This document shows positions 3,662 through 49,387 of a stretch of DNA of 64,000 nucleotides, piece after piece. The stretch covers positions 89,128-153,127 of the forward strand of contig JAZDLW010000021.1 in assembly GCA_043801595.1 (NCBI GenBank), given 5' to 3'. Origin of the DNA: Candidatus Aenigmatarchaeota archaeon (GTDB lineage Archaea > Aenigmatarchaeota > Aenigmatarchaeia > JACPZZ01). The notes beneath the pieces are model-generated. The model had not been told where the DNA came from. It was given only the letters and a program-made list of their open reading frames with translations, and ran no database searches. How positions within the stretch are numbered: position 1 is the stretch's first letter; the number at the start of each line of letters is the position of its first letter. The position numbers and the translations under genes were made by a program.

Positions 3662-3748
3662 AGAAGGCGGGGATGTTTAGGGATTTGTATATAAACTAAA
3701 ATTGGTTGATGCGTACAAGTTTTTATACGATTTAAATTAACAATAATT

Positions 3749-6988: not shown

Positions 6989-7031
6989 ATATAATCTTCT
7001 CAATAATTTATCAATTTAAAATTTAATTTAG

Positions 7032-7337: not shown

Positions 7338-7472
7338 TATAAAAAACTAAGGATATAGTCAAATTAAAAATATTTTAAATTTACCTAGCAAGCTATCACA
7401 CTGTTCCTAAACAGTGCCCGTTAAAGCCGTAATAAAACAGACTATTTATGTGAGCATAGCCACATTTTTGAT

Positions 7473-17132: not shown

Positions 17133-19511
17133 ATGCAAATGAAAAAGGCAATTGCAATCGGTATGGGAACACTCCTAGCAGGAGCTTCTCTGGCCTTTGC
17201 AGGCGCAGCAGTAACTGACCTAACTAAGGTCTTTCCTTCTACCGGTACTAGCGACTTGGTAGCGTCGAATACGCTTATTGTCGTTGGCGCTGGTGTAGAT
17301 TCCACAGACACAGTAGCTGGTGTGGATGTAGCAGGAAGATTGGGAAGTACATCGACTACGACCCAGACTTTGACTACAACAGGCAGCAACGTGGACGGAA
17401 TCGAAAAGGACGGTGTGAATATTTGTATAAGCACCACAGCAGCAAGCTGTATCTTGAGTACCGCGGCCGGCACAGGCAGCGCGTTCCCAAGCGGTGTAGT
17501 TATGACAAATACGCATTACTCCGGACTGAAGAAAGGGACCATATCGTGGGACAGTAATGACTACGACTACAAGGAGCAAGCAGACCTTAGCGGAGTGACA
17601 ATGAGTCACGACGTGACAACAGACAAAGTGAACGGAACCGAGACAATGGTAGTTGAAAGCGGAGACCTAATATATAACTACGTTTTTGACAAGGCATTGA
17701 ATATCTCGAGTAAGAGCACAAAGGGCACAATTGCGAACCCGGAGTACACGTACCCGGTTAACGTAAAGCTCTTGGGCAAGACGTTCACCATTGTGGGTGT
17801 TGGTGCATCTTCAATCAAAGCCCTTGCGGGTGAGAGCGGAGAGATCAGCGCTACGACAGGTCTGACATCTGGCGCATACACAATATACGCCACACAAGGT
17901 GTAAGTGATTCGTGGGCAAAGATCGTTGTAAAAGACGCATCTGGTACTGAAGTTGCATCGAAATCGATCAGCTCGGCCAGCAGCTACGACTTTTCGGCAC
18001 AAGGCATAACAGTCAAAGTGACCGGAGTCAGAGCTATAGGCACGACCGGTGAGATCTCTGGTGTTGACGTAGTACTCGGCCCAACAGGCTCTGTTGAGAA
18101 AGAATACGACTCGACAGCTGATGTCACAAGCACTGGAACTGCAAGCGACTTATTCCCAGGTTCAACGGATTGGGGAATACAGACAACAGGTTTGAGTACC
18201 GGAACATATCCGGGCATTCCTAAGAGTGCAAAAATCCAGGTAGTTTACAAACCAAGCTCGACGCAATACCTGAAAGCGGGAGACAAGGTTACGTTCCCGA
18301 ACAGCTATGCTGAACTCGGATTTGAAGGGTTCAACACAGAAAAGTTCTCGACCATAACTGTCAAACCTTTCGGTGGAACTTCGACCTATGATGCCAACTC
18401 GACAGCTGATATTGTGGGAAGCGACCAATATGGTTTGGAAATAGCCTCGGATGTCTCGGGCTCAATAGTGAGCTTGGCAGGCAACAGCTATGATAAGGCA
18501 TATGTCTTGTTCAACAGGACTATGACTACGGCCACAGCTGGATATGGTACGCCATTCTGGATTGGTTTCTATGATAAGACCAGTAGCAAGATATTGGTCA
18601 ATAGAACCAGTGTAGACCTTGGTAACCTAGGCTTGATGGAAACGGCAAAAACGAACGTAACAACCGCAGAGTACGGACACGGCATATTGACCGCGTCGAA
18701 CTCGACATACACCTATCCGTTTAAGATAACTTACGGCGGATCCGGTGATGCGGATTGGTACCTGAACGTTACGTTGAACTTCACCAACGGAATTCAATCC
18801 GTTAAGGTGGGAAGTGTTCCAACAACGTTCTTTGACGTAACAGCCGATTTCCGAAACAAGACTGCAGGCCTTACCACAGCTGCACCTCAATTTAGATTGG
18901 GTGCGACCGCGGCAAGCGCAGAGGACAGCGAAATTTTGGCAACAACCAACGGACAGACAAACCAGCCTGTAGGCAAGAAGACACAGGACATCGTATCGGA
19001 CAGTGAGACTATCTTAGTCAACACTAACACGAACGGTGGATCGGACAGCTTTGTCTTCAAAGTACCTTCGAAGAGATTAGCTGCGAAGGTCTACTTTGGT
19101 AAGATAGGCGCGACGAGCGGTACGAGCACGTACCAGGCAGCTGTGCCAGTAACAACGCCTTTGGGCAAGTTGACGTCTGACTACACTGACGCAACCATAA
19201 AGACAACCGGCAAGAATTTGATCTTGGTCGGTGGTCCTTGTGCAAACAAGTTTGTCGGAACATTGATGAATGTAACCGGCAGCGACTGCTTGGACAAGTG
19301 GTTTGCGGAAGTTGGAGTGACGACTCTGGCAGGTGCAAAAGACAAGGCATTGATCAAGGTAGTCAATGACGCCTTTGAAACAGGCAAGGCAGCGATAATA
19401 GTTGCCGGAACTGACGCAAAGGACACCAGAAATGCAGCAGCGAAATTAATCGCTGACGGCCTGACTGGATCGAAGCTTGTGTACAGCACTGCCACAGCTG
19501 GCAGCCAATAA
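17133..19511 (+). CDS. S-layer/surface glycoprotein-like secreted protein (792 aa, many N-x-S/T sequons)
   Basis: Signal peptide (MQMKKAIAIGMGTLLAGASLAFAGAA), a Thr/Ser/Gly-rich beta-rich body, strong ribosome-binding site and a compound hairpin terminator downstream. Confidence 0.6.
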   Translation: MQMKKAIAIGMGTLLAGASLAFAGAAVTDLTKVFPSTGTSDLVASNTLIVVGAGVDSTDTVAGVDVAGRLGSTSTTTQTLTTTGSNVDGIEKDGVNICISTTAASCILSTAAGTGSAFPSGVVMTNTHYSGLKKGTISWDSNDYDYKEQADLSGVTMSHDVTTDKVNGTETMVVESGDLIYNYVFDKALNISSKSTKGTIANPEYTYPVNVKLLGKTFTIVGVGASSIKALAGESGEISATTGLTSGAYTIYATQGVSDSWAKIVVKDASGTEVASKSISSASSYDFSAQGITVKVTGVRAIGTTGEISGVDVVLGPTGSVEKEYDSTADVTSTGTASDLFPGSTDWGIQTTGLSTGTYPGIPKSAKIQVVYKPSSTQYLKAGDKVTFPNSYAELGFEGFNTEKFSTITVKPFGGTSTYDANSTADIVGSDQYGLEIASDVSGSIVSLAGNSYDKAYVLFNRTMTTATAGYGTPFWIGFYDKTSSKILVNRTSVDLGNLGLMETAKTNVTTAEYGHGILTASNSTYTYPFKITYGGSGDADWYLNVTLNFTNGIQSVKVGSVPTTFFDVTADFRNKTAGLTTAAPQFRLGATAASAEDSEILATTNGQTNQPVGKKTQDIVSDSETILVNTNTNGGSDSFVFKVPSKRLAAKVYFGKIGATSGTSTYQAAVPVTTPLGKLTSDYTDATIKTTGKNLILVGGPCANKFVGTLMNVTGSDCLDKWFAEVGVTTLAGAKDKALIKVVNDAFETGKAAIIVAGTDAKDTRNAAAKLIADGLTGSKLVYSTATAGSQ

Positions 19512-19912: not shown

Positions 19913-20335
19913 CTATAACTTTCCAATGTCCTCTTTCCAGATTTTAGGATTCTTTTTTATGAAATCCGCCATCAATCGCTTGCACTCATCCAAATCCATA
20001 TCAGCGACTTTAACGCCGCGCGATTCCATGAATTTCCGTGCAGCCGTGAGGTTTTTAGATTCTCCGACAACAACTTTTTTTATCCCGAACTGGACTACTG
20101 CGCCGGCGCAGAGGTAACACGGCATTAATGTCGAATACAGCGTCGTGTTCCTGTACGTCCCGATACGGCCTGCGTTGCGCAGACAGTCTATTTCAGCATG
20201 TATTACGGGATCGTTCTCCTGTATGCGTTTGTTGCGCCCGCTGCCGATTATTTTTCCTTTTCTGACCAGAACCGAACCGATGGGTATCCCGCCTTCGCGC
20301 AGCCCTTTGCGCGCCTCCGCGATTGCTGCTGTCAT
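19913..20335 (-). CDS. Cytosine deaminase (Fcy1-like CDA-fold zinc deaminase)
   Basis: HAEIDCL...PCYLCAGA zinc motifs. The C-terminus ECKRLMADFIKKNPKIWKEDIGKL closely matches yeast Fcy1 (CKKIMKQFIDERPQDWFEDIGE). The start is set at the internal MTAAIAEARKG to avoid overlapping the upstream paralog. Confidence 0.75.
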   Translation of the reverse strand: MTAAIAEARKGLREGGIPIGSVLVRKGKIIGSGRNKRIQENDPVIHAEIDCLRNAGRIGTYRNTTLYSTLMPCYLCAGAVVQFGIKKVVVGESKNLTAARKFMESRGVKVADMDLDECKRLMADFIKKNPKIWKEDIGKL

Positions 20336-20346
20336 GAATTTATCTT

Positions 20347-20799
20347 TCAATACAGCACCCTTCCTTTCATCCTTCTCCATTTTGCAAACTCGACCAGGCA
20401 TTCGTTCCTATGCATTTGCTCTGACGGAATACCGGAACCGCGCACAATGGAATATATTTTTTTATCCCGAAACCCGATTTTCGCAGCGTCGGCTGCGGTA
20501 CAACCGTGATAAAATTTATTTATGTTTGCCCAACATATCGCCGCCAAGCACATCGGACACGGTTCGCATGTCGTGTATATCACACAACCAGACAGGTCGA
20601 ATGTTTTTAATTTTTTCGCGGCGTTTCTTATCGCATTGATTTCGGCGTGCGCAGTCGGATCGTTTGTTTTGACAACTTCGTTATGAGCCGTTGAAATTAT
20701 TTTTCCATTATGCACAATTACTGCGCCGAACGGACCGCCGTGATTCAACTTAACGCCTTTGCGCGCCTCGGTTATGGCCGCGAATATGAATTTATTCAT
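20347..20799 (-). CDS. Guanine deaminase (GuaD-type CDA-fold)
   Basis: GGPFGAVIV..G.II...N.V....DPTAHAE..AIR and CEPCPMCL.AI.WA...DAA..GF.D..IY align closely with B. subtilis GuaD. Confidence 0.75.
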   Translation of the reverse strand: MNKFIFAAITEARKGVKLNHGGPFGAVIVHNGKIISTAHNEVVKTNDPTAHAEINAIRNAAKKLKTFDLSGCVIYTTCEPCPMCLAAICWANINKFYHGCTAADAAKIGFRDKKIYSIVRGSGIPSEQMHRNECLVEFAKWRRMKGRVLY

Positions 20800-22195
20800 G
20801 CTGTTTCTCCACTCTGAATATCAGGCATTTCTGGTTCTGTGTGATATTAACTAACAATGTCGTACAATCTTTTGTCTGGTTCAGGAATGCGGATTCCAAT
20901 GGCTGATACCAGCCCGACGAATAATAGATTGTGTAATTTGCCCCGCTATCAATCATGTTTTTACAAGAGAAATCTTCCGAATTCCATGGCAACTGGATAA
21001 AATTGCGTTTCAGGAAATACGAAAAGTACGGCGACATGGTAGTTGACATTGTCTGGTTCGGCAGTTTTTTTATCTCGTCAGCGCATTTGTACATCATATC
21101 CTCGTATTGACGCGGGATCGCTGCGACAACCACAAATGAAATGACAAATAATACCGCAATTATAACTGCAGCGGCTTTTCCGGGGTAGTCGTTTTTCCAC
21201 AACCGTTTTCCGGCGAAAATTTTTCCGAATATCTCGGACAACTTCAACAACCCGACAGCCTCGAGGATTATCGCGGAGTAGGACAATATTCCGAGAAACC
21301 TGTCTTCCTTGTGTGCAACAATATGCAACACTGTTAATGCGATGATTATCGCAACAAAATTGAATTTCAGGAATTCATAGTGCTTTGATTTCCTTATTCC
21401 GATAAACGCAAACGGTATCAGCAATCCCTGGACACCAAGGAACAAAGGAAGCACGGATGCGTAAAACAACAAACTGGTCGGAGGTGATAAACCTATGTTC
21501 GAGAACTGCGGCCATAATGGATTTCCAAACTGGATGTAATTCACAGCGAGCCATGGCGACATTACTGTTAATCCCGCCAATGCGACGATATACAGTTTCC
21601 GGTCGTATAAAACTTTTGTTCCGCGCTTGATTGCAAGGAATGCTAACACGACAATCCCGAGATAAGCCATGAAATGCTTTGACATCATTGCGAGTGCGAT
21701 GGAAACTCCGGACAGTGCCAACCATCTTGTTGAATCATTCTTGTACCCTATGTAAAACGACGCGACGCTTATTGCACCGAAAAGAATTGCAAGATCTTCG
21801 GTGAGCACGCGAGACGAATACAGTATTGAAAATATGTCCGTTGCTATAAGCGCGCTAGTGGCGAACGCAACTTTATTGTCCGTCGCCTTTTTTGTAAGAG
21901 CATAAACGACCGGTATTACAGATATGCTTACCAGCAAAACGAATATACGCGACGATAAAAACGAAAATCCGAACAACGACTCCCACAAAAACAGCGAAAA
22001 TGGCAGCAGCGGCGGACGGAAAGCCTCGAAAAAATAATTGTTGCCTGCGTAGGCGTCGGCCATTGCCATGTAAACAGTCTCGTCCCACCATACGGACGAC
22101 TGCTTTGAAAAGTAGAATATTCTTAGGGATGCGCCAAGGATAATTACCGCAACCAGTATTGCAATCGTCCTGTTATTCATTTGTACCCCTTGCAA
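20792..22195 (-). CDS. GT-C fold glycosyltransferase, ArnT/PMT-like (polyprenol-phosphate-sugar dependent)
   Basis: About 11 TM helices. The first extracytoplasmic loop carries the DE motif (WWDETVY) typical of the GT39/GT83 families. Confidence 0.65.
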   Translation of the reverse strand: MQGVQMNNRTIAILVAVIILGASLRIFYFSKQSSVWWDETVYMAMADAYAGNNYFFEAFRPPLLPFSLFLWESLFGFSFLSSRIFVLLVSISVIPVVYALTKKATDNKVAFATSALIATDIFSILYSSRVLTEDLAILFGAISVASFYIGYKNDSTRWLALSGVSIALAMMSKHFMAYLGIVVLAFLAIKRGTKVLYDRKLYIVALAGLTVMSPWLAVNYIQFGNPLWPQFSNIGLSPPTSLLFYASVLPLFLGVQGLLIPFAFIGIRKSKHYEFLKFNFVAIIIALTVLHIVAHKEDRFLGILSYSAIILEAVGLLKLSEIFGKIFAGKRLWKNDYPGKAAAVIIAVLFVISFVVVAAIPRQYEDMMYKCADEIKKLPNQTMSTTMSPYFSYFLKRNFIQLPWNSEDFSCKNMIDSGANYTIYYSSGWYQPLESAFLNQTKDCTTLLVNITQNQKCLIFRVEKQHE

Positions 22196-22884
22196 ACGCT
22201 GAACGTCTCGTTATAATTCGGGCAAACCGCAGATAATATCTCATTCATTGTCATGAATTTTCCGTAGGTTATTCCGTCGATTACAAGCGACGGGAAATCG
22301 TATATCTTGTACTGCGCGCGCAGTATGTCTATCATCGACTCTTCCAGTTGGGAATCAATTGAGAAGACAAGAAGGCTGTCGCCCAGATTCTGCTTTAGCT
22401 GTTCCAGAATGTATCCTTCATCATTGCATTTGCTGCAGTCCTTGTTGTTGAAGTAAAGCACGCTAACCGAGTCGGAACCGCACATCTCCTTGCTTTTTTC
22501 CGCTAGCAGCCAGTAGCGCAGGTTTGCGATCGTATACTTCCTCTTCAATACTATGTAATCCGGATTCGACGTATCGCCGGAAGATTCGTAACCTTCGATC
22601 TTCTTGAGCGTCGGTCCGAGGGTCTTGAGGTTGCTTTCCAGTGTTCGGGATATCACAATACAGCTTTCGTTTTTAGGCACGCTTTCGAGGTAAGAAAACT
22701 GGAATTGCAGGCTGCTAAAATCAGCTTCCTGCTGTCGGCTTAACTGCTCGAGTTCGAGTATCTTCCTCTCGCTCATCATTGTTCCGAGAACGAAACCAAG
22801 CACGAATATTGCCGCGGTTATGAATGCCGCCGCTAAATATTTGTCCTTTTTTATGCCGCGGTTGATAACTGCCATCCTTAACAA
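22177..22884 (-). CDS. Hypothetical membrane-anchored protein (single N-terminal TM helix)
   Basis: Clean ORF in the glycosylation block with a hydrophobic N-terminal segment (AAAFITAAIFVLGFVLGTMM). Confidence 0.45.
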   Translation of the reverse strand: MLRMAVINRGIKKDKYLAAAFITAAIFVLGFVLGTMMSERKILELEQLSRQQEADFSSLQFQFSYLESVPKNESCIVISRTLESNLKTLGPTLKKIEGYESSGDTSNPDYIVLKRKYTIANLRYWLLAEKSKEMCGSDSVSVLYFNNKDCSKCNDEGYILEQLKQNLGDSLLVFSIDSQLEESMIDILRAQYKIYDFPSLVIDGITYGKFMTMNEILSAVCPNYNETFSVCKGYK

Positions 22885-22907
22885 TTCCGTAAATAACCGA
22901 TATATAG

Positions 22908-24158
22908 TTACCAGTCGTGCTTGTCCTTCAGGACCAAATCGATTGTCGAGATTATGTATATGAAGCTAAGAAAAATGTAGTAAACGAAAATAAATACAGC
23001 CATCGGGATCGCTTCCGTGAAACTCATCCGTTCGCTTGTGGTCTTATGAGACCTCACGAGAATGAAGAGCGTTATTGCCGCGAACGCCCATATCACAAAC
23101 AGCTTGTAGAAATCCGTGAAAAACACGAAGTTGCTGACAAATTCGGAAACGTTGAAAAACGAACCGATGTTAAAATAGAAGCCCGCAATATAGATGTGCC
23201 TCAATACCTGCAATGCGGGCAGGAATACGTAAATGCCAAAAAATATTGTCATAAAAAAACAAGACAACAACCCGAACAGCACGTTTGGCATCAGAAAATA
23301 ACCGAAATCGCCGTAACGGCGATCAAGCATGATAGACCTGTATTTGTTGAATGTTAACCACGAACCTTTGCACCACCTTTTTCTCTGGTAATAAAGGTCA
23401 CGGAGGCTTTTCGGAGCAACCGTGTACACGTCACCCCTGTCGCTTTGCACTATCCGGTAATTGTATTTTTGCATCCTGTAAGCTATTTCCTGGTCTTCGA
23501 CAATGGAGCTTTCGTCGAATTTTCCGATCTTTCGCAGTACGTCGGTCCTGTATACGCTGAACGGGCCGGGCGTCACGTTTATCGCGTTTATGTGGCTTAA
23601 AATTCTTTTAACGTAAACCGCGAGCAGGTATTCGACCTTCTGGACTTTTTGGAGAGTCGTTCTCGGTTTGTCGACTTTCATTATCGGCGTGACCGCGGAT
23701 ATGTTTTTTTCAGAAAAATTTACAAGCATCTCCTTGAGCGAGTTTCTCGAAACGTAGGAATCCGCGTCCAAACACGCGACAAACTCGCCTTTCGCGCGGT
23801 CAAGGGCAAAATTAAGGGCCGCACCCTTGCCTTTCCGATTTTGTTTCAGGATTTTTATCCTTTTGTCCCGTATTTTCCTGACAACGCTTTCCGTATTGTC
23901 CGTTGAACCGTCATTGACGACTATGACCTCAAGCTTGTTTTTCGGATAATCCATATTTAGTGCCGACCGCACAACCTTGCTGATTGTGTGCGCCTCGTTA
24001 AACGCGGGGACTATGACGGAAACCATTGGCCAGACCGCGAATTTGCGCGGATAAAAATGGAACCTGGTTTCCCCGCTTTCGAACAATGTCAACATCAAAA
24101 ATACTGTCAGGTACAGAAGCGAGAAATAAAATACCGCAAATAATATATCCATTATCAA
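22908..24158 (-). CDS. Membrane GT2 processive glycosyltransferase (NodC/IcaA/chitin-synthase-like)
   Basis: VIVPAFNEA, DADS, QRKRW motif, and flanking TM helices. Confidence 0.75.
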   Translation of the reverse strand: MIMDILFAVFYFSLLYLTVFLMLTLFESGETRFHFYPRKFAVWPMVSVIVPAFNEAHTISKVVRSALNMDYPKNKLEVIVVNDGSTDNTESVVRKIRDKRIKILKQNRKGKGAALNFALDRAKGEFVACLDADSYVSRNSLKEMLVNFSEKNISAVTPIMKVDKPRTTLQKVQKVEYLLAVYVKRILSHINAINVTPGPFSVYRTDVLRKIGKFDESSIVEDQEIAYRMQKYNYRIVQSDRGDVYTVAPKSLRDLYYQRKRWCKGSWLTFNKYRSIMLDRRYGDFGYFLMPNVLFGLLSCFFMTIFFGIYVFLPALQVLRHIYIAGFYFNIGSFFNVSEFVSNFVFFTDFYKLFVIWAFAAITLFILVRSHKTTSERMSFTEAIPMAVFIFVYYIFLSFIYIISTIDLVLKDKHDW

Positions 24159-24178
24159 CCGATCACCGCTAAACCATA

Positions 24179-24889
24179 CTAGGCGCCTGTCTTATTTAAT
24201 TTTATAAATTTGTAGAGCAACAGGCTGAAAACGTGCCTGAGATAATTCGTATATTCCCTTGCGTTAAGTTTTGTTTTTCCGGCTTTCCTGTTCATGAAGA
24301 CGTACGGGACTTCTACGATCTTCTTGTACCTGCCTTTTACTATGATTTCGAGCCCGATCTTGTAGCCTATCGGGTCCAACGAAACGCCTTTGATAACTCC
24401 GCGCCTCAAAACAAAAAAACCGGACATTGGATCGCGCACGCTGGTAAGAGGGAGCGCCATTGTTGTTGCTCCGAGCGACGTTATTCTCCGGATTATTGGC
24501 CAGCCTTCTATGCCGCCCCCGCGAACATAACGGCTTCCGATAACAACGTCCGCTCCTTTCTTGATTTCCGCAACCATGCGTGGAAGCGTCTGGACAGGAT
24601 GGCTGAAATCGGCGTCCATTACGCCAAGCACATCGCCCTTGGCCGCTCCGAAACCGGCGATAACCGCGGAAGACAGACCAAGCTTTCCACTGCGCTCTAT
24701 GACAACGAGATTTTTCTGCTTTTTTGCAAGCCCTTTGCAAAGTTTTCCCGTATTATCGGGTGAATTGTCGTCAACGATTATTATCTCGGCCTTAATGGAA
24801 TTTTTCCTGAAAACGTGGTTAAGATCCTTTATTAGCAACCCTATGTTTTCCCTTTCATTGTACGTCGGGATAACCAAACTAAACAGCAT
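24179..24889 (-). CDS. Dolichol/polyprenol-phosphate mannosyl (hexosyl) transferase, DPM1-like GT2
   Basis: LVIPTYNERENI, VDDNSPDNT, MDADFSH; about 236 aa. Confidence 0.75.
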   Translation of the reverse strand: MLFSLVIPTYNERENIGLLIKDLNHVFRKNSIKAEIIIVDDNSPDNTGKLCKGLAKKQKNLVVIERSGKLGLSSAVIAGFGAAKGDVLGVMDADFSHPVQTLPRMVAEIKKGADVVIGSRYVRGGGIEGWPIIRRITSLGATTMALPLTSVRDPMSGFFVLRRGVIKGVSLDPIGYKIGLEIIVKGRYKKIVEVPYVFMNRKAGKTKLNAREYTNYLRHVFSLLLYKFIKLNKTGA

Positions 24890-29223: not shown

Positions 29224-29991
29224 TCATGCGCCGAACCTGCGCTGGCGCATATTAAAATCTTTTATCGCCGCAACCAGGTCGTTTTTCGAGAATTCCGGCC
29301 ACGATTTTTTGATAAAACATAATTCGGAATACGCGGATTGGAACAGCAAAAAGTTGCTGAGTCGTTTTTCACCGCCGGTTCTTATTATCAGTTCCGGGTC
29401 GCTTGCCTGAGGATTATAAAAATTCTCTCGCAACGTGCTTTCGCTTATTTCCGACGGCTCTATTGCGCCGGCCTTGACCTGCGCTGCTATATTTTTCACT
29501 GCGTCGACAATTTCCGTCCTGCTGCCGTACGCTATTGCAAAATTTGCCTCGAAACCGTTGTAATCCTTGGTAAGCTCCTCGACTTTTGCCAGAAGCATCC
29601 TCAATTTTTTCGGGAGTGTTTCCGTTTTGCCTATGATTTTTACCCGGACTTTTCTCGCGTGCACATTGTGATGTTTATTACTGATAACGTCGCAGGCGAC
29701 CTTTTCCATGAGCTTGTACAAATACTCCAGCTCTATCCTGGGCCGGCCTGCTATGTTTTCCAGGGAAAGCGTGTACAATGTCACGGTTTTTATGCCGAGA
29801 TCGGCACACCATCCCAAGACTTCGTCAACTTTCTTCTGGCCCCACTCATGTCCTTTCCATGGTTCCAACATCAACCGCTTTGCAAAACGCCTGTTGCCGT
29901 CCATTATAATCCCGAGATGGCGTACAGACTGCTCTTTCAGAGCCGTATATTCCACATTTTCCGATTCGTTCAGTGTCCGCATTTCGTGCAC
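29224..29991 (-). CDS. uppS: cis-prenyltransferase (undecaprenyl/dolichyl diphosphate synthase)
   Basis: HLGIIMDGNRRFAK, YTLSLEN, and AIAYGSRTEIVDA motifs. Confidence 0.9.
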   Translation of the reverse strand: MHEMRTLNESENVEYTALKEQSVRHLGIIMDGNRRFAKRLMLEPWKGHEWGQKKVDEVLGWCADLGIKTVTLYTLSLENIAGRPRIELEYLYKLMEKVACDVISNKHHNVHARKVRVKIIGKTETLPKKLRMLLAKVEELTKDYNGFEANFAIAYGSRTEIVDAVKNIAAQVKAGAIEPSEISESTLRENFYNPQASDPELIIRTGGEKRLSNFLLFQSAYSELCFIKKSWPEFSKNDLVAAIKDFNMRQRRFGA

Positions 29992-30046: not shown

Positions 30047-32062
30047 TTATTTGCTTGTAAATATATACCTCAGAACGAGTATCGCGGCTATTGCAAGGAT
30101 TATTCCCACAACCACAATGCCCCTGTTGCCGCTGCCGGATGGCAATGTCGTGGTTGTCGCGATGGTTGTTGTGGTTGTCGTCGGTCCCACGATGCTTGCT
30201 GTGAAATCTATGCTGGCCGGTATCCCCTTTTCGGATATTGCTATCACGGTTGTGCTGTAGTTTCCCAATCTTGTGCCAAATGGCGGAGCGATGAACAGAT
30301 AAATCTTTCCGGTTTCATTCGGAGCCAACGTGATGTTGCCTACGCCCACGGATATCCATGACGGCCCTATAGCCTGAAGCATGTAATTCAGCGTTTTTAT
30401 GCCCGTGTTCCTTAACTGAATCTCCTGCAGGTTCCTGTCCAAAGGATTTATCGATTTTTCAACATCCTTTGGTGTGAATGAACTGCCGTAGCATGATTTA
30501 GGATCCGAAACGACCAGCGCAGCGGTTGATTTTAATTCCACGTTATCGGATTTCGCGGCTATTGCAATGCCGTATATGCCGCTCTCATTGCTGTAGTTGG
30601 CAACAAAGTCCACGCTCTTGTTGGCGTTGGGCTGCAGCAAAAGATTGTTCGCGATCATTTTGCCGGCTGCGAACAACGCAAATGTCTCGGTTTTTAATCC
30701 GGTGTTTTTAAGCACAAGCGTGAAGCTAGCCCTGTCCGGCGCGCAGACATTAAGCGATGGCGGTATGACCTGCATCTCGGCGCTGTGGCACACAGGGACA
30801 TTAAGCGTAAATTTCGCATCTTTTTTCAGGGAGCCTGCTGCGACGCTCACAGTTGCATCATAAGTCTTGTTTTCAGCGAACCCTGTCGTATTGATCGTGA
30901 GATGAATATCAACGGAATTTCCGGGCACCAGCGTAACCTTGCTCACATCCAGACCGCCCAGATTCGACGTGAGATTGTACGTATCGGTTATTGTGCCAAG
31001 GTTCCTGACATTTACCGGGAAAACAAACGTCTCGCCCTTGCATACCGAACCCGACGCCAATGCCGACGTAATGCCTATTGCACCGCACTCGGTCACGTTC
31101 GATTCGGCGGATATTTTCTTTACAAAATCGCTGCCCACCGATTTAACACCGATGCCAAGCTTGAATTTTTCAACAGTGTCATGCGTATATATGATTTTGA
31201 ATGTTTCATTTTCCGAAGCATTGATGGCCAGCTGCGTCTGCTCAGAGCCTGCGCTTATCAAATACACATCGGGTTTTGTGCCAGTGTTCTTTACAACAAG
31301 TTCGAATGACGACGGACTTCTAATGCATGCCGGAATAACAGGATTTACGAACGCGTCAAACGTAAAACACTCCTTTACGTTCACGTCCATCGATGCTTCT
31401 GCTGCTGCGAACGAATCAGGCGATGTTGCAAAGAACCTGATTTTATTTGCCGAGACATTGGCGTAATATGTTTCGAAATTGACAATGGCAGACTGTCCGG
31501 CTGCGAGTTTCAATGTGGGATTATCAAATTTTCCAGCAGCGTCCGAAGATAGATTAAACGTTTCGGTCACACGACCGATGTTTTTAACTACGATTGTTGT
31601 GGAGAATTTGTCGCGCGCGCATGTTTTTGCGGAGCCCTGGGCAGCCAGCGAAACGGCATTGCAGGCTAGTACATCCACGTTGATCTTGGCCGCCAAATTA
31701 TCCGCCGAAGACAATGAGTTTGCTTTTATCGTAACACCGTACTTTTGGACAATTGTATCGTTGAAGGGATTGAAAAAAACAGAACACAGCGCCGACTCGC
31801 CAGATGCGAGAACAACCTCGTCGTTGCTTATGCTTCCTTTGTTGCATCCTGCGAACGTTGTTAAATCAGCGTCGGAAGTAAGCTTGTATGTGTCTGTCAC
31901 AGGTCCGACGTTCGTTATCCTAACGAGCTGGTTCGTGAAAGATAATTTACAAACGCCCATATCACTGATCGTGGGCTCTACGCTGACGCGGCTTGCCTGG
32001 GCTTGCACGGAAAATACTACAAAAAACAGGAAAGAAGCTGCGAATAAAAACTCTCTCCTCAT
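30047..32062 (-). CDS. Secreted cell-surface protein with repeated beta-sandwich domains, a C-terminal poly-Thr stalk and a TM anchor
   Basis: Signal peptide, repeated about 100-aa modules (NTG/NIG..T.TY.L motifs), C-terminal PTTTTTTIATTTTLPSGSG followed by a hydrophobic helix and a basic tail. Confidence 0.6.
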   Translation of the reverse strand: MRREFLFAASFLFFVVFSVQAQASRVSVEPTISDMGVCKLSFTNQLVRITNVGPVTDTYKLTSDADLTTFAGCNKGSISNDEVVLASGESALCSVFFNPFNDTIVQKYGVTIKANSLSSADNLAAKINVDVLACNAVSLAAQGSAKTCARDKFSTTIVVKNIGRVTETFNLSSDAAGKFDNPTLKLAAGQSAIVNFETYYANVSANKIRFFATSPDSFAAAEASMDVNVKECFTFDAFVNPVIPACIRSPSSFELVVKNTGTKPDVYLISAGSEQTQLAINASENETFKIIYTHDTVEKFKLGIGVKSVGSDFVKKISAESNVTECGAIGITSALASGSVCKGETFVFPVNVRNLGTITDTYNLTSNLGGLDVSKVTLVPGNSVDIHLTINTTGFAENKTYDATVSVAAGSLKKDAKFTLNVPVCHSAEMQVIPPSLNVCAPDRASFTLVLKNTGLKTETFALFAAGKMIANNLLLQPNANKSVDFVANYSNESGIYGIAIAAKSDNVELKSTAALVVSDPKSCYGSSFTPKDVEKSINPLDRNLQEIQLRNTGIKTLNYMLQAIGPSWISVGVGNITLAPNETGKIYLFIAPPFGTRLGNYSTTVIAISEKGIPASIDFTASIVGPTTTTTTIATTTTLPSGSGNRGIVVVGIILAIAAILVLRYIFTSK

Positions 32063-45184: not shown

Positions 45185-48100
45185 ATGAAAAACACGGCTG
45201 TAATTGCCGGACTGCTGTCGCTTCTTCTCATTGCAACCGCTGCGTACGCAAATGTGAACGAAAATAAAGCACTGCAAAAAATGGAGCGCGGGCTTGTTGC
45301 GAAACTTGCAGAACCGGGCGAGGAAAACGAAAAGGTCATAGTGTGGATCGAACCGGGAAAGATGAACGCGGCAATTGCGGCGAGTTTCGGGAATGTAAAA
45401 CAGGAGTTTTCGATAATACCCGCGATTGCGATGGATGTTCCTAAATCGAAATTAAAAAGTCTCGCTTCGCTCGGATTTGTCAAGAAAATATCAATAGACC
45501 ACAAGATTTTCGCATTAAGGAACAACGCGATACCGATCACAGCATCAGATGTTGCAATGAATACGTACGGGTATAACGGGACGAACATCAAAATCGCGAT
45601 AATAGACACGGGAATTTACAATCATTCGGAATTCCAGACCCCGAACAGGATAGTGCTACAGAAATGCTTTACGTTGGGGGCGTGCCCGCCGAATAATGCG
45701 AACACGAGCAACAACGCAACCGATGATTACGGGCACGGAACGCACGTTGCAGGCATAGCTGCGGGCGAAGGATCCGCATCGTACGGACGAGGTTCTGCCC
45801 CGAATGCCACGATAATAGCTATAAAGGTGCTCGATTCGTCCGGAAGCGGATGGGACAGTGATGTCATATCCGGAATGCAATTCGCAGTCGACAACGGCGC
45901 GAACATAATTTCGATGAGTCTGGGTGCCTATATCACAGGCGATTGCTACGATGATTCAGGCACGTCTTTGGCTGTGGACAATGCCACAAACATGGGTGTT
46001 GTTGTAGTAATTGCGGCTGGCAACAATGGAACTTTTTCATCCTCGATAGCAGCACCGGGTTGCGCGAAAACAGCCATAACCGTCGGCGCGACTGCTAAAA
46101 CTGATGCGATAGCGTCGTACAGCTCGATCGGGCCGACAAACGATAACCGCACAAAACCGGACATAGTGGTAACCGGAGGTTCGGGTGCGACATGTCCGGG
46201 AACGATGATAATATCAACTTATCCGACAAACCTCGCATCAAGCGGTTATGTCTGCGAATCCGGAACCTCGATGGCAACGCCGCTCGTGTCCGGAATCGCG
46301 GCAATGCTGATGGAAAAATACAACGCAACGCACGGATACATGCCAGTGCCGGGGCTTGTAAAGGCGATTCTGCTCAATTCTGTTAACACATCAGGAATGT
46401 CAACGGACGGCTATACGCAGCGCAATAACGTATACGGCGCGGGCAGATTAGATGCTTATGGTGTCCTGAACAATTCCGACAATGCAAATAATTATTCGAT
46501 AACCCAAAATGCGCAAAACGTTCATAGGATACACGTTTCTTCGTCCTCGTTAAAGGTAACGCTCGTATGGATGGAAAATTCCACGACAAGAAACAACCTT
46601 GACCTGATTGTCGGTAATGGTACGAACAATTTCACAAATCCGACCGATGCAAACGATACTGTTGAACAGGTTTTTCTGCAAAACATAAACAACGGAACGT
46701 GGAACGTATACGTGAAAGGAACTTCGGTAGCGGGAACGCAGGAATATTTCATTGCGTATCCGTCAACCGCAATATTTCCCAGTTTTTCCAGCAACAATAC
46801 GGGAAAAAATTCTGGAATGCAATACGCGCCAAATGAAAATTACAGTTTCGGAATAAATGTCAACGGATCATTATCTGTTGACGAGGTTTCAGCTGTGATT
46901 TTTCAATTGAACAGTACAAACTACACGAAAAATTCCGCAGATCCTGTGTATAACAACAGCGCCGGAAATTTCTGGATAAACCTGACCGATCTATCCGCAG
47001 GCGCATACTCGTACCAGTGGTTTGCCAACAGCACGCAAAACAACTGGAACGCGACAAGCCCGCTGATATTCGTGATAGCAAAGAATTATTCAGCAAACCT
47101 GATCAATCTGACAATAAACAACACCAACAACGACGTTTCATCGCCCTACGATTATATGCTAAATATAACCGCATGGAAAAATTTCACCGAGGGAAACCTT
47201 ACATTGTACAGGAATGGTTCGATAGTAGGAACATCGGGAATAAACCAACCGAATGAAACAGTGTCGCTGGGCGGCGGCGTTTACAATTACACTGTTGTTC
47301 TCGAAGAAACACAAAACTACTCGTTCGTAAATATAACCAGAATGTTGACGGTTACGCAAACTCCGACAGGCATAACGCTTCTCCTTAACGGAAGCGCGGG
47401 AAATTACACGTATGATATCCGCACAACAGCCAACTTCACTGCGATTGTAAATATTTCGGGAAAGAACGTCACGCTGACATCGAATATGAGCGGATGGGTT
47501 GACCAGAACAATGTAAATATCACAGAAAACTTGACCATTTTAAACCAGATCGGAATATTCAACATAACCGCGTATTTCGCGGGTGACCAGAACTACTCCT
47601 ACTCATCACAAACGCTCTTCGCAACAGTTGTTGATGCGAACGCCCCAACGATACATGCGAATTATACCTCGCTCGACAGCGGAATAGAATATTATCCCGG
47701 ACGATTTTATACATTCAATGTAAGCGTGCAGGACAACAACGTTGTATCCGCCGTGATATTGCAATTAAATTCCACAAACCGCACAGCATACCTCTATGAA
47801 GGCTCCATGTCCGAAGGAAACTGGTCGGCAAATGTAACGGATATTGCCGCGAGTGAAACAGGTTATCCAATCGTCTGGTACGCAAACGACACTTCAAATA
47901 ACTGGAACAGGACGGATGTATGGTATTACGTCATAAACAAAAATTCTTCCGCGTATACAGTTATAGCAGCGAACAATACAACAATAGAAATTCCGCGGTC
48001 ATGGTCTGTTAATTCGACATCACCTATCAGCGCGAAAATAGAGACGAGATTGTATTCCAACGAATCTGGAAGTATGCTTCTTTTAAACAGCTCTACCGGA

Positions 48101-49387
48101 ACGAACAGATATTCGGGCAGCGCATTTCCGCCGAACATTGTGAACATATCGTCCAATTCGTCGTCGAATGAAAATTATACAGCCAACTCGACGCTAGAAA
48201 GCACGGTCATCAGGTTCGTTGACACGGCGAACCCCGCATTGGCAGAAGGATTGGTGCTGCCGCGAACGGTTGAAACACAGAATAACATAACAATGCTGAT
48301 CGTCGCTGACGATTACAGTGCAATTTTGGCAGTTGCGAACATATACAACTCGACCAATTCGAGCATCGCAAGATTCGGTCTTTATTACGTGACGAATACC
48401 ACGGCAAACGTTTCTTACCTAAACCGTACCACATGGTTATATTCGTTCAACGTAACATCGATGCCGACAGGCAACTTTTTCGCAAACGTTTCTCTAACCG
48501 ATGTCTGGGGCAACGCAGCAAACTATTCACTGGGAAACTTCACAGTAACAAACGGGTCTGCGGGAACAATGTACAGCAATTCCTCAATTCAAATCAGGAA
48601 TAACATAGAAGTGGATCTTTTGTCAGCGATGAACGTGTCGCTCAATATAAGTTCGACTTCAAACTCAGGCCAAGATGCGATCGCGCTGGCTACATATTTC
48701 ACGAACCCGTCGAACCAGAACAACAACGCTGTTACGATAAACAAGTTTACGGAAATTTCAGTCGGAGGTTTGTTGAATTACACACTAAACTGGGTCGTTA
48801 TACGAATAAATTATAATTCTTCGGATATTCAGTCGGGATACGGCGAAAACAACCTGAGAATATATTACAACCACCCAAATGGAACATGGATCGTGTACGA
48901 CGGCACGCTGCTCGGCGGCGTCAACACGACCGAAAAATATGTGTGGGCAAACTCCACACATTTCAGCCTTTACGGCGTGTTCGTAATGCCTACATGTTCG
49001 GACAGTATACAGAACCAAGGAGAAACGGGTGTAGATTGCGGCGGACCCTGTTCGGCGTGCGCCTCCACTCCGCCCGCAAATACGCCAGGCAGTATCGGAG
49101 GTTCAACCGCAACGACAACTACGACTACAACGACGACAACTATTGCAACGACTACCACAACTTCGACCACAACGACTACCACGACAATGACTGCGACTAC
49201 GATCACAACACAAAATAAAACCGCCGACACGATCGAAAGCGAACCAGCGAAAAAACAGGACAACGACTTTGTGATTGTTGTGTTGTTGTCTCTGATAGCG
49301 ATAATTACCGCTGCCGTGATTTACAAAAACAGGAAAAGATTAGGCTACATCCTGTACAATATCAAAAAGAATTCAAGCCTGGAATAA
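45185..49387 (+). CDS. Giant subtilisin-like (S8) serine protease: signal peptide, I9 propeptide, catalytic domain, long N-glycosylation-rich repeat region, poly-Thr stalk and TM anchor
   Basis: Catalytic triad contexts AIIDTGI (Asp), HGTHVAGIAAG (His), GTSMATP (Ser). The C-terminus TTTTTTTTTIATTTTTSTTTTTT is followed by a hydrophobic helix and KNRKR. Confidence 0.9.
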   Translation: MKNTAVIAGLLSLLLIATAAYANVNENKALQKMERGLVAKLAEPGEENEKVIVWIEPGKMNAAIAASFGNVKQEFSIIPAIAMDVPKSKLKSLASLGFVKKISIDHKIFALRNNAIPITASDVAMNTYGYNGTNIKIAIIDTGIYNHSEFQTPNRIVLQKCFTLGACPPNNANTSNNATDDYGHGTHVAGIAAGEGSASYGRGSAPNATIIAIKVLDSSGSGWDSDVISGMQFAVDNGANIISMSLGAYITGDCYDDSGTSLAVDNATNMGVVVVIAAGNNGTFSSSIAAPGCAKTAITVGATAKTDAIASYSSIGPTNDNRTKPDIVVTGGSGATCPGTMIISTYPTNLASSGYVCESGTSMATPLVSGIAAMLMEKYNATHGYMPVPGLVKAILLNSVNTSGMSTDGYTQRNNVYGAGRLDAYGVLNNSDNANNYSITQNAQNVHRIHVSSSSLKVTLVWMENSTTRNNLDLIVGNGTNNFTNPTDANDTVEQVFLQNINNGTWNVYVKGTSVAGTQEYFIAYPSTAIFPSFSSNNTGKNSGMQYAPNENYSFGINVNGSLSVDEVSAVIFQLNSTNYTKNSADPVYNNSAGNFWINLTDLSAGAYSYQWFANSTQNNWNATSPLIFVIAKNYSANLINLTINNTNNDVSSPYDYMLNITAWKNFTEGNLTLYRNGSIVGTSGINQPNETVSLGGGVYNYTVVLEETQNYSFVNITRMLTVTQTPTGITLLLNGSAGNYTYDIRTTANFTAIVNISGKNVTLTSNMSGWVDQNNVNITENLTILNQIGIFNITAYFAGDQNYSYSSQTLFATVVDANAPTIHANYTSLDSGIEYYPGRFYTFNVSVQDNNVVSAVILQLNSTNRTAYLYEGSMSEGNWSANVTDIAASETGYPIVWYANDTSNNWNRTDVWYYVINKNSSAYTVIAANNTTIEIPRSWSVNSTSPISAKIETRLYSNESGSMLLLNSSTGTNRYSGSAFPPNIVNISSNSSSNENYTANSTLESTVIRFVDTANPALAEGLVLPRTVETQNNITMLIVADDYSAILAVANIYNSTNSSIARFGLYYVTNTTANVSYLNRTTWLYSFNVTSMPTGNFFANVSLTDVWGNAANYSLGNFTVTNGSAGTMYSNSSIQIRNNIEVDLLSAMNVSLNISSTSNSGQDAIALATYFTNPSNQNNNAVTINKFTEISVGGLLNYTLNWVVIRINYNSSDIQSGYGENNLRIYYNHPNGTWIVYDGTLLGGVNTTEKYVWANSTHFSLYGVFVMPTCSDSIQNQGETGVDCGGPCSACASTPPANTPGSIGGSTATTTTTTTTTTIATTTTTSTTTTTTTMTATTITTQNKTADTIESEPAKKQDNDFVIVVLLSLIAIITAAVIYKNRKRLGYILYNIKKNSSLE

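Follow-up and report, generated by a model that had tools for sequence, protein, structure and literature searches.

A conserved DPANN gene unit of a synthase-type GT2, a thioredoxin-fold membrane protein and a GT-C enzyme: a possible cell-surface glycan operon in Aenigmatarchaeota

The closest described counterparts of the locus analysed here are extracytoplasmic post-polymerisation systems such as GtrA/GtrB/GtrC, the Citrobacter ORF12/14/15 pentofuranose system and mycobacterial Rv3805c-Rv3808c (AftB/UbiA/PAP2/GlfT2), in which polyprenyl phosphate is loaded with a sugar in the cytoplasm and a GT-C enzyme then transfers the sugar, outside, to a pre-made glycan; three-component glycan-decoration systems of this kind are described in PMC11127046. 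In the AglD/AglR/AglS route of Haloferax and the Agl22/Agl23 route of Haloarcula, a DPM1-like GT2 charges Dol-P, and a PMT-like multi-span protein uses the sugar outside to finish S-layer glycans. In synthase-dependent systems (BcsA-BcsB, PgaC-PgaD, NodC and the hyaluronan and chitin synthases), TM helices flank a GT-A domain that carries D, DxD, (T/V)ED and QRxRW motifs, and an adjacent gene encodes a single-pass partner with an outward domain.

The present locus lies in a window of 64,000 nucleotides from an Aenigmatarchaeota archaeon, and consists of four minus-strand genes at 24889..20792, arranged as a co-directional run with intergenic gaps of at most 30 nt: DPMS, a Dol-P-Man synthase-type GT2; GT2syn, a membrane-embedded synthase-type GT2; X, a thioredoxin-fold membrane protein; and a GT-C glycosyltransferase. 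An earlier sequence-only reading had placed three genes in this interval; the elements that it named are all found where it had located them, on the minus strand, but X, between GT2syn and GT-C, had been overlooked. The TTG starts are a product of ORF calling. GT2syn was called from 24158 (416 aa) and has 414 aa when counted from the ATG at 24152. The GT-C frame was called as 22195..20792, and its length of 462 aa is counted from the ATG at 22180, while residue numbers follow the ORF numbering; X was called as 22884..22177 and has 232-235 aa depending on the start.

The interpretation preferred here, tentatively and with slightly less than even confidence, is that the interval represents, in Aenigmatarchaeota, a DPANN-wide operon that builds a cell-surface glycan. 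The host is a tiny symbiotic archaeon, and the locus has the appearance of a machine for coating its cell surface with sugar. GT2syn would polymerise a beta-linked glycan from nucleotide sugar at the cytoplasmic face and probably thread it outward through its own TM channel, and GT-C, at the outer face, would take single sugars from a polyprenyl-monophosphate donor and attach them to an extracytoplasmic acceptor. This acceptor would most simply be the GT2syn product, whether free, lipid-linked or protein-linked, so that the reaction would be a post-polymerisation mannosylation. Such a system would differ from the Gtr and Rv3805c-type systems in that its backbone is made by a membrane-embedded QxxRW synthase rather than by a Wzy- or ABC-dependent pathway, in its obligate thioredoxin-like subunit, and in its archaeal hosts, which have dolichol-type carriers; there is also no flippase gene of the GtrA, MATE, SMR or Wzx type in the operon. 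It would differ from the haloarchaeal Agl routes, for which neither a synthase-type GT2 nor a thioredoxin-like partner has been described.

The organisation of related loci bears directly on which genes belong together. A genome scan gave 57 species loci, which were combined with metagenome loci into 58 non-redundant loci; the labels on their records are Aenigmat-, Nanohal-, Woese- and Nanoarchaeia. The order GT2syn-X-GT-C is found in every one of these DPANN loci, and GT2syn lies directly upstream of X in 57/57 loci in which clustering detected X, the 58th being the cut locus L002. A DPMS ortholog lies directly upstream of this module in the window and in eight further Aenigmatarchaeota loci, and the adjacency is restricted to this lineage; the conserved unit is GT2syn-X-GT-C, rather than DPMS and GT-C. 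In 28 Woesearchaeota-type loci GT-C is instead adjoined by a UbiA protein resembling decaprenyl-phosphate phosphoribosyltransferase (216-220 bits on the model for that enzyme versus 39 bits on that for DGGGP synthase), accompanied in 16 of the 28 by a PAP2 phosphatase, and the DPMS and UbiA donor genes never occur together in any of these loci. The gene that supplies the lipid-linked sugar thus varies by lineage. With UbiA and PAP2 beside GT-C and a GT2, the Woesearchaeota cluster resembles mycobacterial Rv3805c-3808c, and its gene set is that of known extracytoplasmic glycan-decoration systems. Since GT2syn and X are obligate partners, while DPMS is replaced elsewhere by a phosphoribosyl-lipid pathway, glycan decoration fits these observations better than the mannosylation of Ser/Thr residues.

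In the Aenigmatarchaeota the donor would be Dol-P-Man. DPMS (24179..24889, minus strand, 236 aa) matches over residues 3-226 the catalytic domain of the P. furiosus Dol-P-Man synthase, PfDPMS (5mlz, chain residues 25-249), at 2.3e-63; its match to ArnC, at 2e-15, is far weaker, and its Pfam Glycos_transf_2 match is at 2.3e-34. The residues DADFSHPV 92-99, SRY 119-121, R134/135, S138 and K177 occupy positions of metal, GDP and Dol-P contacts as defined for PfDPMS in PMC12992685, and the protein that the sequence-only reading had called DPM1-like is a very good Dol-P-Man synthase homologue in which the Dol-P-binding residues are kept. No TM helix is predicted in DPMS, which consists of the catalytic domain alone, without the membrane domain of PfDPMS, and in this it differs from the haloarchaeal enzymes; catalysis by PfDPMS does not need its TM domain. 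The homology suggests that DPMS supplies a lipid-linked mannose donor, and its specificity for mannose is likewise probable, although some DPMS-like enzymes are specific for other sugars, AepG being an example (PMC9943897). The carrier may come from the cis-prenyltransferase, which was correctly named in the earlier reading and is encoded outside the operon at 29991..29224 on the minus strand (Pfam Prenyltransf, 1.9e-71); this gene keeps its relative position in loci L001, L010, L011 and L016.

GT2syn (22908..24152, minus strand, 414 aa) is best matched among NCBIfam models by PgaC/IcaA (PgaC_IcaA, 6.4e-49, under the equivalog cutoff). Its predicted TM segments (5-23, 293-311, 350-368 and 388-406) place one helix at the N-terminus and three or more at the C-terminus, and it contains DAD131, ED221 and QRKRW258, which align with the TED and QRGRW (QxxRW) motifs of BcsA. 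Among 57 sequences linked to the module, the residues D83GSxD87, D131xD133, E221D222 and Q258RxRW262 are kept in 97% or more. These motifs and the topology suggest an enzyme of the PgaC/NodC/BcsA kind that polymerises and exports a glycan. GT21-type lipid glycosyltransferases also have the QxxRW signature, however, so processivity and export are only putative. The locus differs from synthase-dependent systems in having no PilZ domain, no deacetylase and an obligately linked GT-C enzyme. GT2syn also has a Pfam Glyco_transf_21 match (6e-10), which can be read as the mark of a different pathway, in which a GT2syn of the GT21 or MGlcDG-synthase kind glycosylates an archaeol-type lipid and GT-C extends the head group outside with mannose, like PimE/Mpt or PIG-B. 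DPANN archaea depend on scavenged lipids and could conceivably remodel them, and the motifs that GT-C shares with GT22, the family of PIG-B, are also consistent with such a pathway. It is nevertheless judged decidedly unlikely, since the best family of GT2syn is a polymer synthase, its homologues include proteins with chitin-synthase Pfam matches, lipid acceptors have no direct support, and X is left without a role.

GT-C (20792..22180, minus strand, 462 aa) has the features that had been noted from its sequence, namely the motif WWDETVY at ORF residues 36-42 in the first outer loop, about 11 TM helices and no MIR domain. Its Pfam matches are PMT_2 (2.5e-20, 73.7 bits), Glyco_transf_22 (1.5e-10, 41.3 bits) and PMT (7e-9, 36.0 bits), and its AlphaFold model (pLDDT 85) has about 11 TM helices followed by a C-terminal alpha/beta domain. 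In a Foldseek search, which bears out the GT-C fold, ArnT ranks first (TM 0.70), ALG12 (TM 0.66, rmsd 5.7), ALG9 and STT3/AglB also match, and the Pmt1/2/4 structures rank below ArnT, ALG12, ALG9 and STT3. GT-C shares with GT39 PMT and GT83 ArnT the GT-C fold, an acidic first-outer-loop motif and a predicted polyprenyl-monophosphate sugar donor. A GT39 PMT identity is nevertheless ruled out, as PMT_4TMC and MIR occur in 0/49 family members and the PF02366 match is weak; an ArnT identity is unsupported by sequence, the solved ArnT and PMT structures giving no sequence-level match to GT-C even with the family profile, and the partner GT2 is DPMS-like rather than ArnC-like.

The resemblance to GT22 (ALG9, ALG12, PIG-B/Gpi10 and Smp3), a family that had been thought to be eukaryote-only (PMC4973528), extends to size (about 460-480 aa), fold, the spacing of a base and two Arg residues, and the sequence HKEDRF at residues 295-300, which corresponds to the GT22 'HKEXRF short motif' of PMC3906172. 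The strict HKExRF form is restricted to Aenigmatarchaeota, other lineages having [HRN]K[EDQ]xR[FY], and the GT22 Pfam score exceeds the gathering threshold in 28/49 family members. Identity to GT22 enzymes is only about 13%, though, and PMT_2 outscores GT22, so that GT-C is, sequence-wise, intermediate between PMT_2 and GT22. D38, Y42, R60 and R299 do not vary over the 49 sequences, and K296 hardly does. The Asp/Arg/Arg trio is spaced like E35/R67/R312 of ALG12 (PMC13503287), an equivalence drawn from position and conservation, under which catalysis would follow the ALG12 pattern, with D38 serving as the base and R60 and R299 holding the leaving phosphate. The proposal that GT-C is a PMT/ArnT-type enzyme therefore stands as far as its fold and invariant residues, which suit an outer-face enzyme using polyprenyl-monophosphate sugars, and fails as an assignment to either family. 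Because these features fit, and because DPMS keeps its Dol-P contacts, the pairing of the two proteins is sensible, and GT-C is a probable extracytoplasmic mannosyltransferase.

The lack of any other flippase in the operon invites the suggestion that the GT-C-like protein is itself no transferase but a flippase of the Agl23 kind, which would translocate Dol-P-sugar or lipid-linked glycan. Haloarcula Agl23 moves lipid-linked glycan in proteoliposomes (PMC11182771), and GT-C has a weak NCBIfam Agl23 match (3.3e-9). Its score of 36 bits is far under the cutoff of 126, however, and the invariant first-outer-loop Asp and two Arg residues form the catalytic pattern of GT-C transferases, which makes a flippase highly improbable.

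X (22177..22875, minus strand, 232 aa) is previously undescribed and has no Pfam family; searches of Pfam and NCBIfam gave zero matches. Its stop codon TGA (22179..22177) overlaps the GT-C ATG (22180..22178) as ATGA, through which X is translationally coupled to GT-C. The AF2 model (pLDDT 79) is that of an N-in, single-pass protein that has a stalk of three helices and, on the extracytoplasmic side, a thioredoxin-fold domain. The best Foldseek matches are thioredoxins without exception, their target-normalised TM reaching 0.81. C150xxC153, cis-Pro198 and two more Cys pairs are all invariant in 19 homologues, and clustering of the family at 50% identity (E<=1e-10) gives 923 clusters, all of about 210-250 aa. 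In the preferred reading of a surface-glycan operon X would be an accessory subunit, speculatively one that acts in redox chemistry or folding or holds the acceptor, and might form a complex with the other proteins of the unit. It is unrelated to BcsB or PgaD, and we know of no polysaccharide synthase system that uses a thioredoxin-fold partner. The precedent is Ost3/Ost6 (TUSC3/MagT1) with STT3, in which a membrane-anchored CxxC thioredoxin-fold subunit on the non-cytoplasmic side stands beside a protein-glycosylating GT-C enzyme, and X to this extent points toward a protein acceptor. The resemblance is a functional analogy only: in Ost3/6 the thioredoxin domain is N-terminal and four TM helices come after it, while X has one N-terminal TM helix and a helical stalk, and the GT-C enzyme here is not STT3.

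Protein substrates are also hinted at by the surroundings of the module, since GT-C is followed, at a distance of 0.1-5 kb, by an S-layer gene ortholog in the loci of Aenigmatarchaeota and Nanohalarchaeota (this gene is absent from this position in Woesearchaeota loci), and since 11 Woesearchaeota-type loci contain an AglB-PPIase fusion inside the extended cluster. One way in which a protein could be the acceptor is that GT-C adds a terminal mannose to a protein-bound N-glycan, part of whose lipid-linked form GT2syn may build, as in Haloferax, where AglD loads mannose onto Dol-P and AglS passes it to a protein-bound tetrasaccharide (PMC3871713). The AglB genes of those 11 loci, the membership of GT22-like motifs in mannosylators of N-glycan precursors, and the 86 N-X-S/T sequons of the S8 protease and 11 of the S-layer protein of the window are consistent with this route, which is still considered unlikely: the window contains no AglB gene, N-glycan assembly is not known to involve a QxxRW synthase that has a TM domain of its own, and X would have no role.

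The sequence-only reading had proposed a protein O-mannosylation system, while fairly allowing that modification of S-layer glycans or lipids was equally possible. According to that proposal GT-C puts mannose from Dol-P-Man directly on Ser/Thr of secreted proteins such as those with poly-Thr stalks and the S-layer protein, with X holding Cys-containing substrates or keeping them unfolded, as Ost3/6 does for STT3, and GT2syn serving another step. The DPMS/GT-C pairing on which it was built is sensible, and the DE-type motif, the PMT and PMT_2 matches, the coupling of a CxxC thioredoxin-fold protein to GT-C, the three secreted poly-Thr proteins of the window, the neighbouring S-layer genes and the AglB-PPIase fusions all fit; Haloarcula, too, uses Dol-P-hexose outside the cell for O-glycan synthesis, according to PMC11182771, which cites Lu 2020. 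The proposal nevertheless appears rather unlikely, because the GT39 hallmarks are missing throughout the family, the Pmt structures rank low, the obligate partner GT2syn is given no role and DPMS is adjacent only in Aenigmatarchaeota. The domain of X, moreover, resembles classical thioredoxins, with no Ost3/6 or TUSC3 structure among its top 50 Foldseek matches. The 28 loci with a DPPR-synthase-like donor pathway, linked with PAP2, also stand against it; this pathway serves glycan side chains, and no modification of Ser/Thr by it is known to us.

The poly-Thr tracts themselves are real. Tracts far beyond chance occur in three secreted proteins of the window, each a candidate acceptor: an MG2-domain protein of 875 aa (54307..56934, plus strand; N-terminal poly-Thr at 31-84, 12 T in 12 residues), the S8 protease of 1400 aa (45185..49387, plus strand; poly-Thr at 1310-1334, 11 T in 12 residues, directly before a C-terminal TM anchor), and an Ig/Fn3-like protein of 671 aa (30047..32062, minus strand; a short Thr tract, 10 T in 12 residues, before a C-terminal TM anchor). 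At least four such proteins had been claimed, and a fourth could only be the S-layer protein (17133..19511, plus strand, 792 aa; S_layer_C, Pfam 1.7e-17), which has 8 T in 12 residues, and which, as a candidate acceptor or simply a neighbour, is encoded convergently with the four-gene operon.

The operon examined here, from the metagenome-assembled genome of a Candidatus Aenigmatarchaeota archaeon (DPANN), consists of four co-directional open reading frames on the minus strand, which are separated by gaps of no more than 30 nt and lie downstream of a block of ribosomal-protein and eIF6 genes. In order, these encode DPMS, a small GT2 of the Dol-P-Man synthase type (236 aa, 24889..24179); GT2syn, a synthase-type GT2 (416 aa, or 414 aa from its ATG, 24158..22908); X, a small membrane protein (235 aa, or 232 aa from its ATG, 22884..22177); and GT-C, the multi-span enzyme that bears the motif WWDETVY (467 aa, or 462 aa from its ATG, 22195..20792). 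The stop codon of X overlaps the ATG of GT-C in the tetranucleotide ATGA at 22180..22177, and an overlap of 8 nt joins the stop of GT-C to the start of a gene of the cytidine-deaminase family. The operon genes bear generic names in NCBI, where a protein 100% identical to GT-C is entered as “glycosyltransferase family 39 protein”. The sequence-only reading had recognized a DPMS-like GT2, a processive-type GT2 and a WWDETVY-bearing GT-C at this place, along with a cis-prenyltransferase in the window; it had not mentioned X. The present analysis bears out each of these observations, the cis-prenyltransferase included. Two tandem genes of the cytidine/deoxycytidylate-deaminase family (TadA-like, 150 and 162 aa, 19913-20799, minus strand) follow GT-C, and this neighbour is not conserved in the related loci.

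The conservation of the operon was evaluated in 58 non-redundant loci, which were collected by homologue look-ups and by a scan with a profile of X, using one genome per GTDB species, and which were analysed by local phmmer, BLAST clustering and Pfam/NCBIfam; the few distant GT-C enzymes that phmmer missed when run with the window GT-C alone were recovered by position. Wherever X is found, GT2syn lies directly upstream of it and a GT-C of the PMT_2 type lies directly downstream, and the stop codon of one gene often overlaps the start codon of the next. The loci that carry this three-gene module are titled in their records as Aenigmatarchaeota, Nanohalarchaeota, Woesearchaeota or Nanoarchaeia. 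Some twenty GTDB-representative MAGs (between L015 and L063 in our locus labels) that carry the module are titled “(uncultured) Methanosarcinales archaeon”; the neighbours of the module in these loci are mostly of the Woesearchaeota type, at least one of the loci (L015) has the double GT-C that is typical of Nanohalarchaeota, and their Methanosarcinales labels look doubtful.

DPMS is outside this constant core. Besides the window, only eight loci, all from Aenigmatarchaeota, have a true DPMS ortholog directly upstream of the core, with eIF6 before it, while in 28 loci of the Woesearchaeota type a UbiA-family gene adjoins GT-C in place of DPMS. The product of this gene scores 216-220 bits on the model for decaprenyl-phosphate phosphoribosyltransferase (cutoff 234); its assignment as a DGGGP synthase was rejected, the corresponding score being 39 bits. 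A PAP2 phosphatase is also present in 16 loci. The pattern is that of a constant core combined with interchangeable enzymes which load a sugar on polyprenyl phosphate, and it is like that of the known extracytoplasmic glycan-decoration systems, in which polyprenyl-phosphate sugar loading is coupled with a GT-C enzyme. These systems include GtrA/B/C, a pentofuranose system of Citrobacter and the mycobacterial arabinogalactan genes, the last of which group GT-C enzymes with a GT2, a PAP2 phosphatase and a phosphoribosyltransferase of the UbiA type (PMC11127046). The Gtr-type three-component system has a dedicated small flippase, whereas neither the operon nor the conserved neighbourhood of the module contains a GtrA, MATE or SMR protein. 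The individual enzyme classes of the module are already known; no description of the trio, of the X family or of the lineage-dependent donor swap was found in the literature searched, the incomplete coverage of which makes this weak evidence of novelty.

The assignment of a putative mannose donor in the window depends on DPMS, which scores 2.3e-63 against the catalytic domain of PfDPMS, the Dol-P-Man synthase of Pyrococcus furiosus (5mlz), as against only 1e-15 to 1e-12 for ArnC and GtrB-type enzymes (ArnC 2e-15). Type-III Dol-P-Man synthases are marked by the motif DADxQHPP and by the Dol-P contacts R117, R131, S135 and K178, to which PfDPMS adds a TM domain of four helices at its C-terminus (N248, N277 and F338), a domain that catalysis reportedly does not require and that may serve to flip the product (PMC12992685). 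Most of the marker residues of PfDPMS are kept in the window enzyme (DADFSHPV at 92-99, in which S replaces Q and V replaces the second P; SRY at 119-121; R134/135; S138; K177), while the four-helix TM domain is missing. Because it ends at residue 236 with zero predicted TM segments, DPMS is a catalytic-domain-only enzyme and not one of type III.

GT2syn has the motif set and the flanking TM helices expected of the processive synthases (BcsA/PgaC/NodC/HAS): a TM segment is predicted at the N-terminus and three or more at the C-terminus, and its motifs D, DxD, VED and QRKRW align with the TED and QRGRW of BcsA. Its best family match in NCBIfam is PgaC_IcaA (6e-49, 167 bits against an equivalog cutoff of 422), and no equivalog-level match to a characterized synthase was found there. 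The function which we favour for the module, and which we hold to be nearly though not quite an even prospect, is the decoration of the GT2syn product by GT-C. GT2syn would make a backbone glycan and export it, and GT-C would decorate this backbone outside the cell, the decorating sugar being mannose from Dol-P-Man in the Aenigmatarchaeota and probably a pentofuranose in the Woesearchaeota. The swap of donor supply between Dol-P-Man and a phosphoribosyl-lipid pathway predicts that the composition of the surface glycan is specific to the lineage.

The GT-C fold is confirmed by an AlphaFold model (pLDDT 85) with about 11 TM helices and a C-terminal alpha/beta domain, and without a large loop domain between TM helices. 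Foldseek returned ArnT (TM 0.70, 13% identity), then ALG12 (0.66, with the lowest rmsd), ALG9 and STT3/AglB/PglB, with Pmt structures ranking lower and all of the fold matches lying at 10-15% identity. The acidic motif WWDETVY, a feature of the GT39 type, occupies residues 36-42 in the first extracytoplasmic loop. Among 49 GT-C enzymes of the module, D38, Y42, R60, G163, a Tyr, R299 and one Cys are invariant and K296 is nearly so, while E39 is replaced by Ser in most of the Woesearchaeota members. The window enzyme matches the Pfam families PMT_2 (73.7 bits), Glyco_transf_22 and PMT, and the same three families are matched by 46, 28 and 35 of the 49 enzymes, respectively. PMT_4TMC (PF16192), the C-terminal four-TM domain of eukaryotic and bacterial PMTs, is found neither in the window enzyme (E<=0.01) nor in any of the 49 (E<=0.001), and the Pfam scans also detected none of the MIR domains that lie in the large luminal loop of eukaryotic PMTs. 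Assignment to the GT39 PMTs was rejected because these two domains are missing, although the acidic motif and the fold are present. Assignment to the GT83 ArnT type was likewise rejected: the likeness is structural only, no NCBIfam ArnT model is matched, and the partner GT2 is DPMS-like rather than an ArnC-type Und-P-(formyl)aminoarabinose synthase. Searches of all PDB sequences by phmmer, by hmmsearch with a profile built on 13 family sequences, and with a fragment of 66 aa surrounding HKEDRF gave no GT-C match; ArnT was absent at E<=10, and what did match, such as antichymotrypsin, was due to chance. The Pfam and NCBIfam scans and these sequence searches are the reason for placing the family outside the GT39 PMTs and, by sequence, outside ArnT. 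A role like that of Agl23 as a flippase is very improbable, since GT-C scores 36.3 bits on the Agl23 model TIGR03663, for which the NCBIfam cutoff is 126.

The likeness of GT-C to GT22 enzymes extends further. On PF03901 (GT22) it scores 41.3 bits, above the gathering cutoff of 23.8 and over profile positions 79-385 of 414, with PMT_2 scoring higher. [quoted passage not shown] A strict HKExRF was rejected as a family-wide feature, since outside the Aenigmatarchaeota it is relaxed to [HRN]K[EDQ]xR[FY], the module-wide form, in which R is invariant and K is present in at least 90%. The structure of ALG12 assigns the role of catalytic base to E35 and the binding of the donor phosphate to two arginines, R67 of the first luminal loop and R312 of the TM9-10 loop (PMC13503287); D38, R60 and R299 of GT-C agree with these residues in spacing and conservation, and on these grounds may be their counterparts. 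In its sequence features, the GT-C family is intermediate between PMT-like and GT22-like enzymes, a position that bears on the origin of the eukaryotic luminal mannosyltransferases. ALG3/9/12 seem to be restricted to eukaryotes, with PMT-type enzymes as their closest relatives (Lombard, PMC4973528). The outward C-terminal domain of GT-C (20792-21100) contains the sequons NQT, NYT, NQT and NIT and four Cys that are kept in close homologues, and GT-C may itself be N-glycosylated and disulfide-bonded.

Protein X matches no Pfam or NCBIfam family model, so that the module holds a protein family without a Pfam model; when 1.84 billion representative proteins were searched with its profile, 923 clusters at 50% identity fell into this family (E<=1e-10, same size). 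Common to all homologues of X, which measure about 225-250 aa, are a TM helix at the N-terminus, the sequence motifs SLQ(F)Q and (N)LRYW, an invariant Pro198 and six invariant Cys, C150xxC153 among them. In the AlphaFold model (pLDDT 79) the TM helix leads through a three-helix stalk to a classical thioredoxin fold of order beta-alpha-beta-alpha-beta-beta-alpha, in which C150xxC153 starts helix 151-170 (thioredoxin helix 1) and P198, in the cis-Pro loop, precedes strand 199-202 (strand 3). The top 50 Foldseek matches are all thioredoxins or PDI domains (target-normalized TM <=0.81). By its modelled fold, CxxC and cis-Pro loop, X is assigned to the thioredoxin superfamily, and its thioredoxin domain is predicted to be outside the cell because positive residues precede the TM helix and the invariant Cys are paired.

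The presence of such a protein beside GT-C recalls Ost3/6 with STT3 in the eukaryotic oligosaccharyltransferase, where a thioredoxin-fold CxxC subunit stands beside a GT-C and acts on protein substrates; no Ost3/6 structure is among the top Foldseek matches of X, and we know of no description of a thioredoxin fold linked to a GT-C other than STT3. By analogy, this arrangement would favour direct mannosylation of protein Ser/Thr by GT-C, which we consider unlikely. A protein acceptor is also favoured by the S_layer_C gene just past GT-C in Aenigmat- and Nanohalarchaeota loci (this adjacency was rejected as a universal link, being confined to these and not seen in Woesearchaeota loci), and by a gene that follows the trio at a distance of a few kb in 11 Woesearchaeota-type loci (including L042:14015-17206) and encodes AglB(STT3) with a peptidyl-prolyl isomerase of the PPIC type fused to its C-terminus (about 1060 aa). 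The poly-Thr stalk proteins argue in the same direction: at least four had been claimed in the window, of which three secreted proteins do contain poly-Thr tracts and the S-layer protein has only a weaker Thr-rich patch. Three points speak against a protein acceptor: GT-C is obligately partnered with a synthase-type GT2, it lacks the hallmarks of GT39, and relatives have a phosphoribosyl-lipid donor pathway. The sequence-only hypothesis that a PMT/ArnT-like GT-C, supplied by DPMS, O-glycosylates the stalks, which was put forward with lipid or S-layer glycan modification as equal alternatives, retains its logic of donor and GT-C, but loses the membership in either family, and the acceptor now leans toward a glycan. 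A bolder form of the protein reading, which we regard as distinctly improbable, is that the trio is an undescribed three-subunit machine of DPANN archaea, in which X would capture Cys-containing secreted proteins and GT-C would O-glycosylate Ser/Thr-rich stalks or the S-layer protein. If so, GT-C would be both the long-sought archaeal O-glycosylation enzyme and a prokaryotic relative of ALG9/ALG12/PIG-B, which have been thought confined to eukaryotes. To our knowledge, the enzymes of archaeal O-glycosylation are still to be identified; the locus is a concrete candidate for this role, with glycan decoration the more likely function.

The nearest functional precedents in archaea are AglD/AglS of Haloferax, which add mannose from Dol-P-Man to the N-linked glycan outside the cell (PMC3871713), and Agl22/Agl23 of Haloarcula, with which Dol-P-hexose serves outside the cell for both N- and O-glycans (PMC11182771). 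The first of these suggests a further possibility, the finishing of N-glycans in the manner of AglS, which we judge quite unlikely; a route in which the product is a glycolipid or lipoglycan is rather improbable. Decoration of the GT2syn product remains the function we favour.

DPANN archaea are host-attached and have tiny genomes in which few biosynthetic pathways are kept. The module is kept in every recovered locus, across several DPANN phyla, and is therefore likely to be central to the cell surface and perhaps to host contact. Its surroundings vary with lineage. The GT-C of Nanohalarchaeota is a tandem double unit of 920-1090 aa, in which the PMT_2 stretch and the WWDE motif each occur twice (L015:5119-7890, L017:2780-6061, L018:5524-8355). 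In 31-32 Woesearchaeota-type loci (e.g. L061:5721-8653), the trio is directly preceded by genes for two multi-span paralogues, each about 490 aa long and with a soluble domain at its C-terminus. One gives weak PMT_2 matches and the other has no family; both are probably further GT-C enzymes. A 159-aa regulator of the HTH_3 (XRE) type lies within a few kb of the trio, mostly on the opposite strand, at L006:13422-13901 and in 23 other loci. In one Woesearchaeota locus (L005:7402-12555), the opposite strand by the trio carries a UbiA-type gene and genes for a 583-aa protein without an assigned family, a GT4 and a PMT_2 protein.

Elsewhere in the window, a low-GC island at 3002-8479 (31-36% GC, compared to 44-48% elsewhere) holds genes for a restriction-modification enzyme of the Eco57I/MmeI type (1079 aa), for a PD-(D/E)XK nuclease resembling Cas4, and for a tandem pair of endonucleases related to Holliday-junction resolvases; it is probably a horizontally acquired defence island. 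A secreted S8 protease of 1400 aa (45185-49387) combines 86 N-X-S/T sequons with a poly-Thr tract and a C-terminal TM anchor, which suggests very heavy N-glycosylation. It is followed by a 478-aa open reading frame on the minus strand (49405-50841) whose N-terminus, IPTFNRPENI, is GT2-like, yet which has no Pfam match at E<=0.01.
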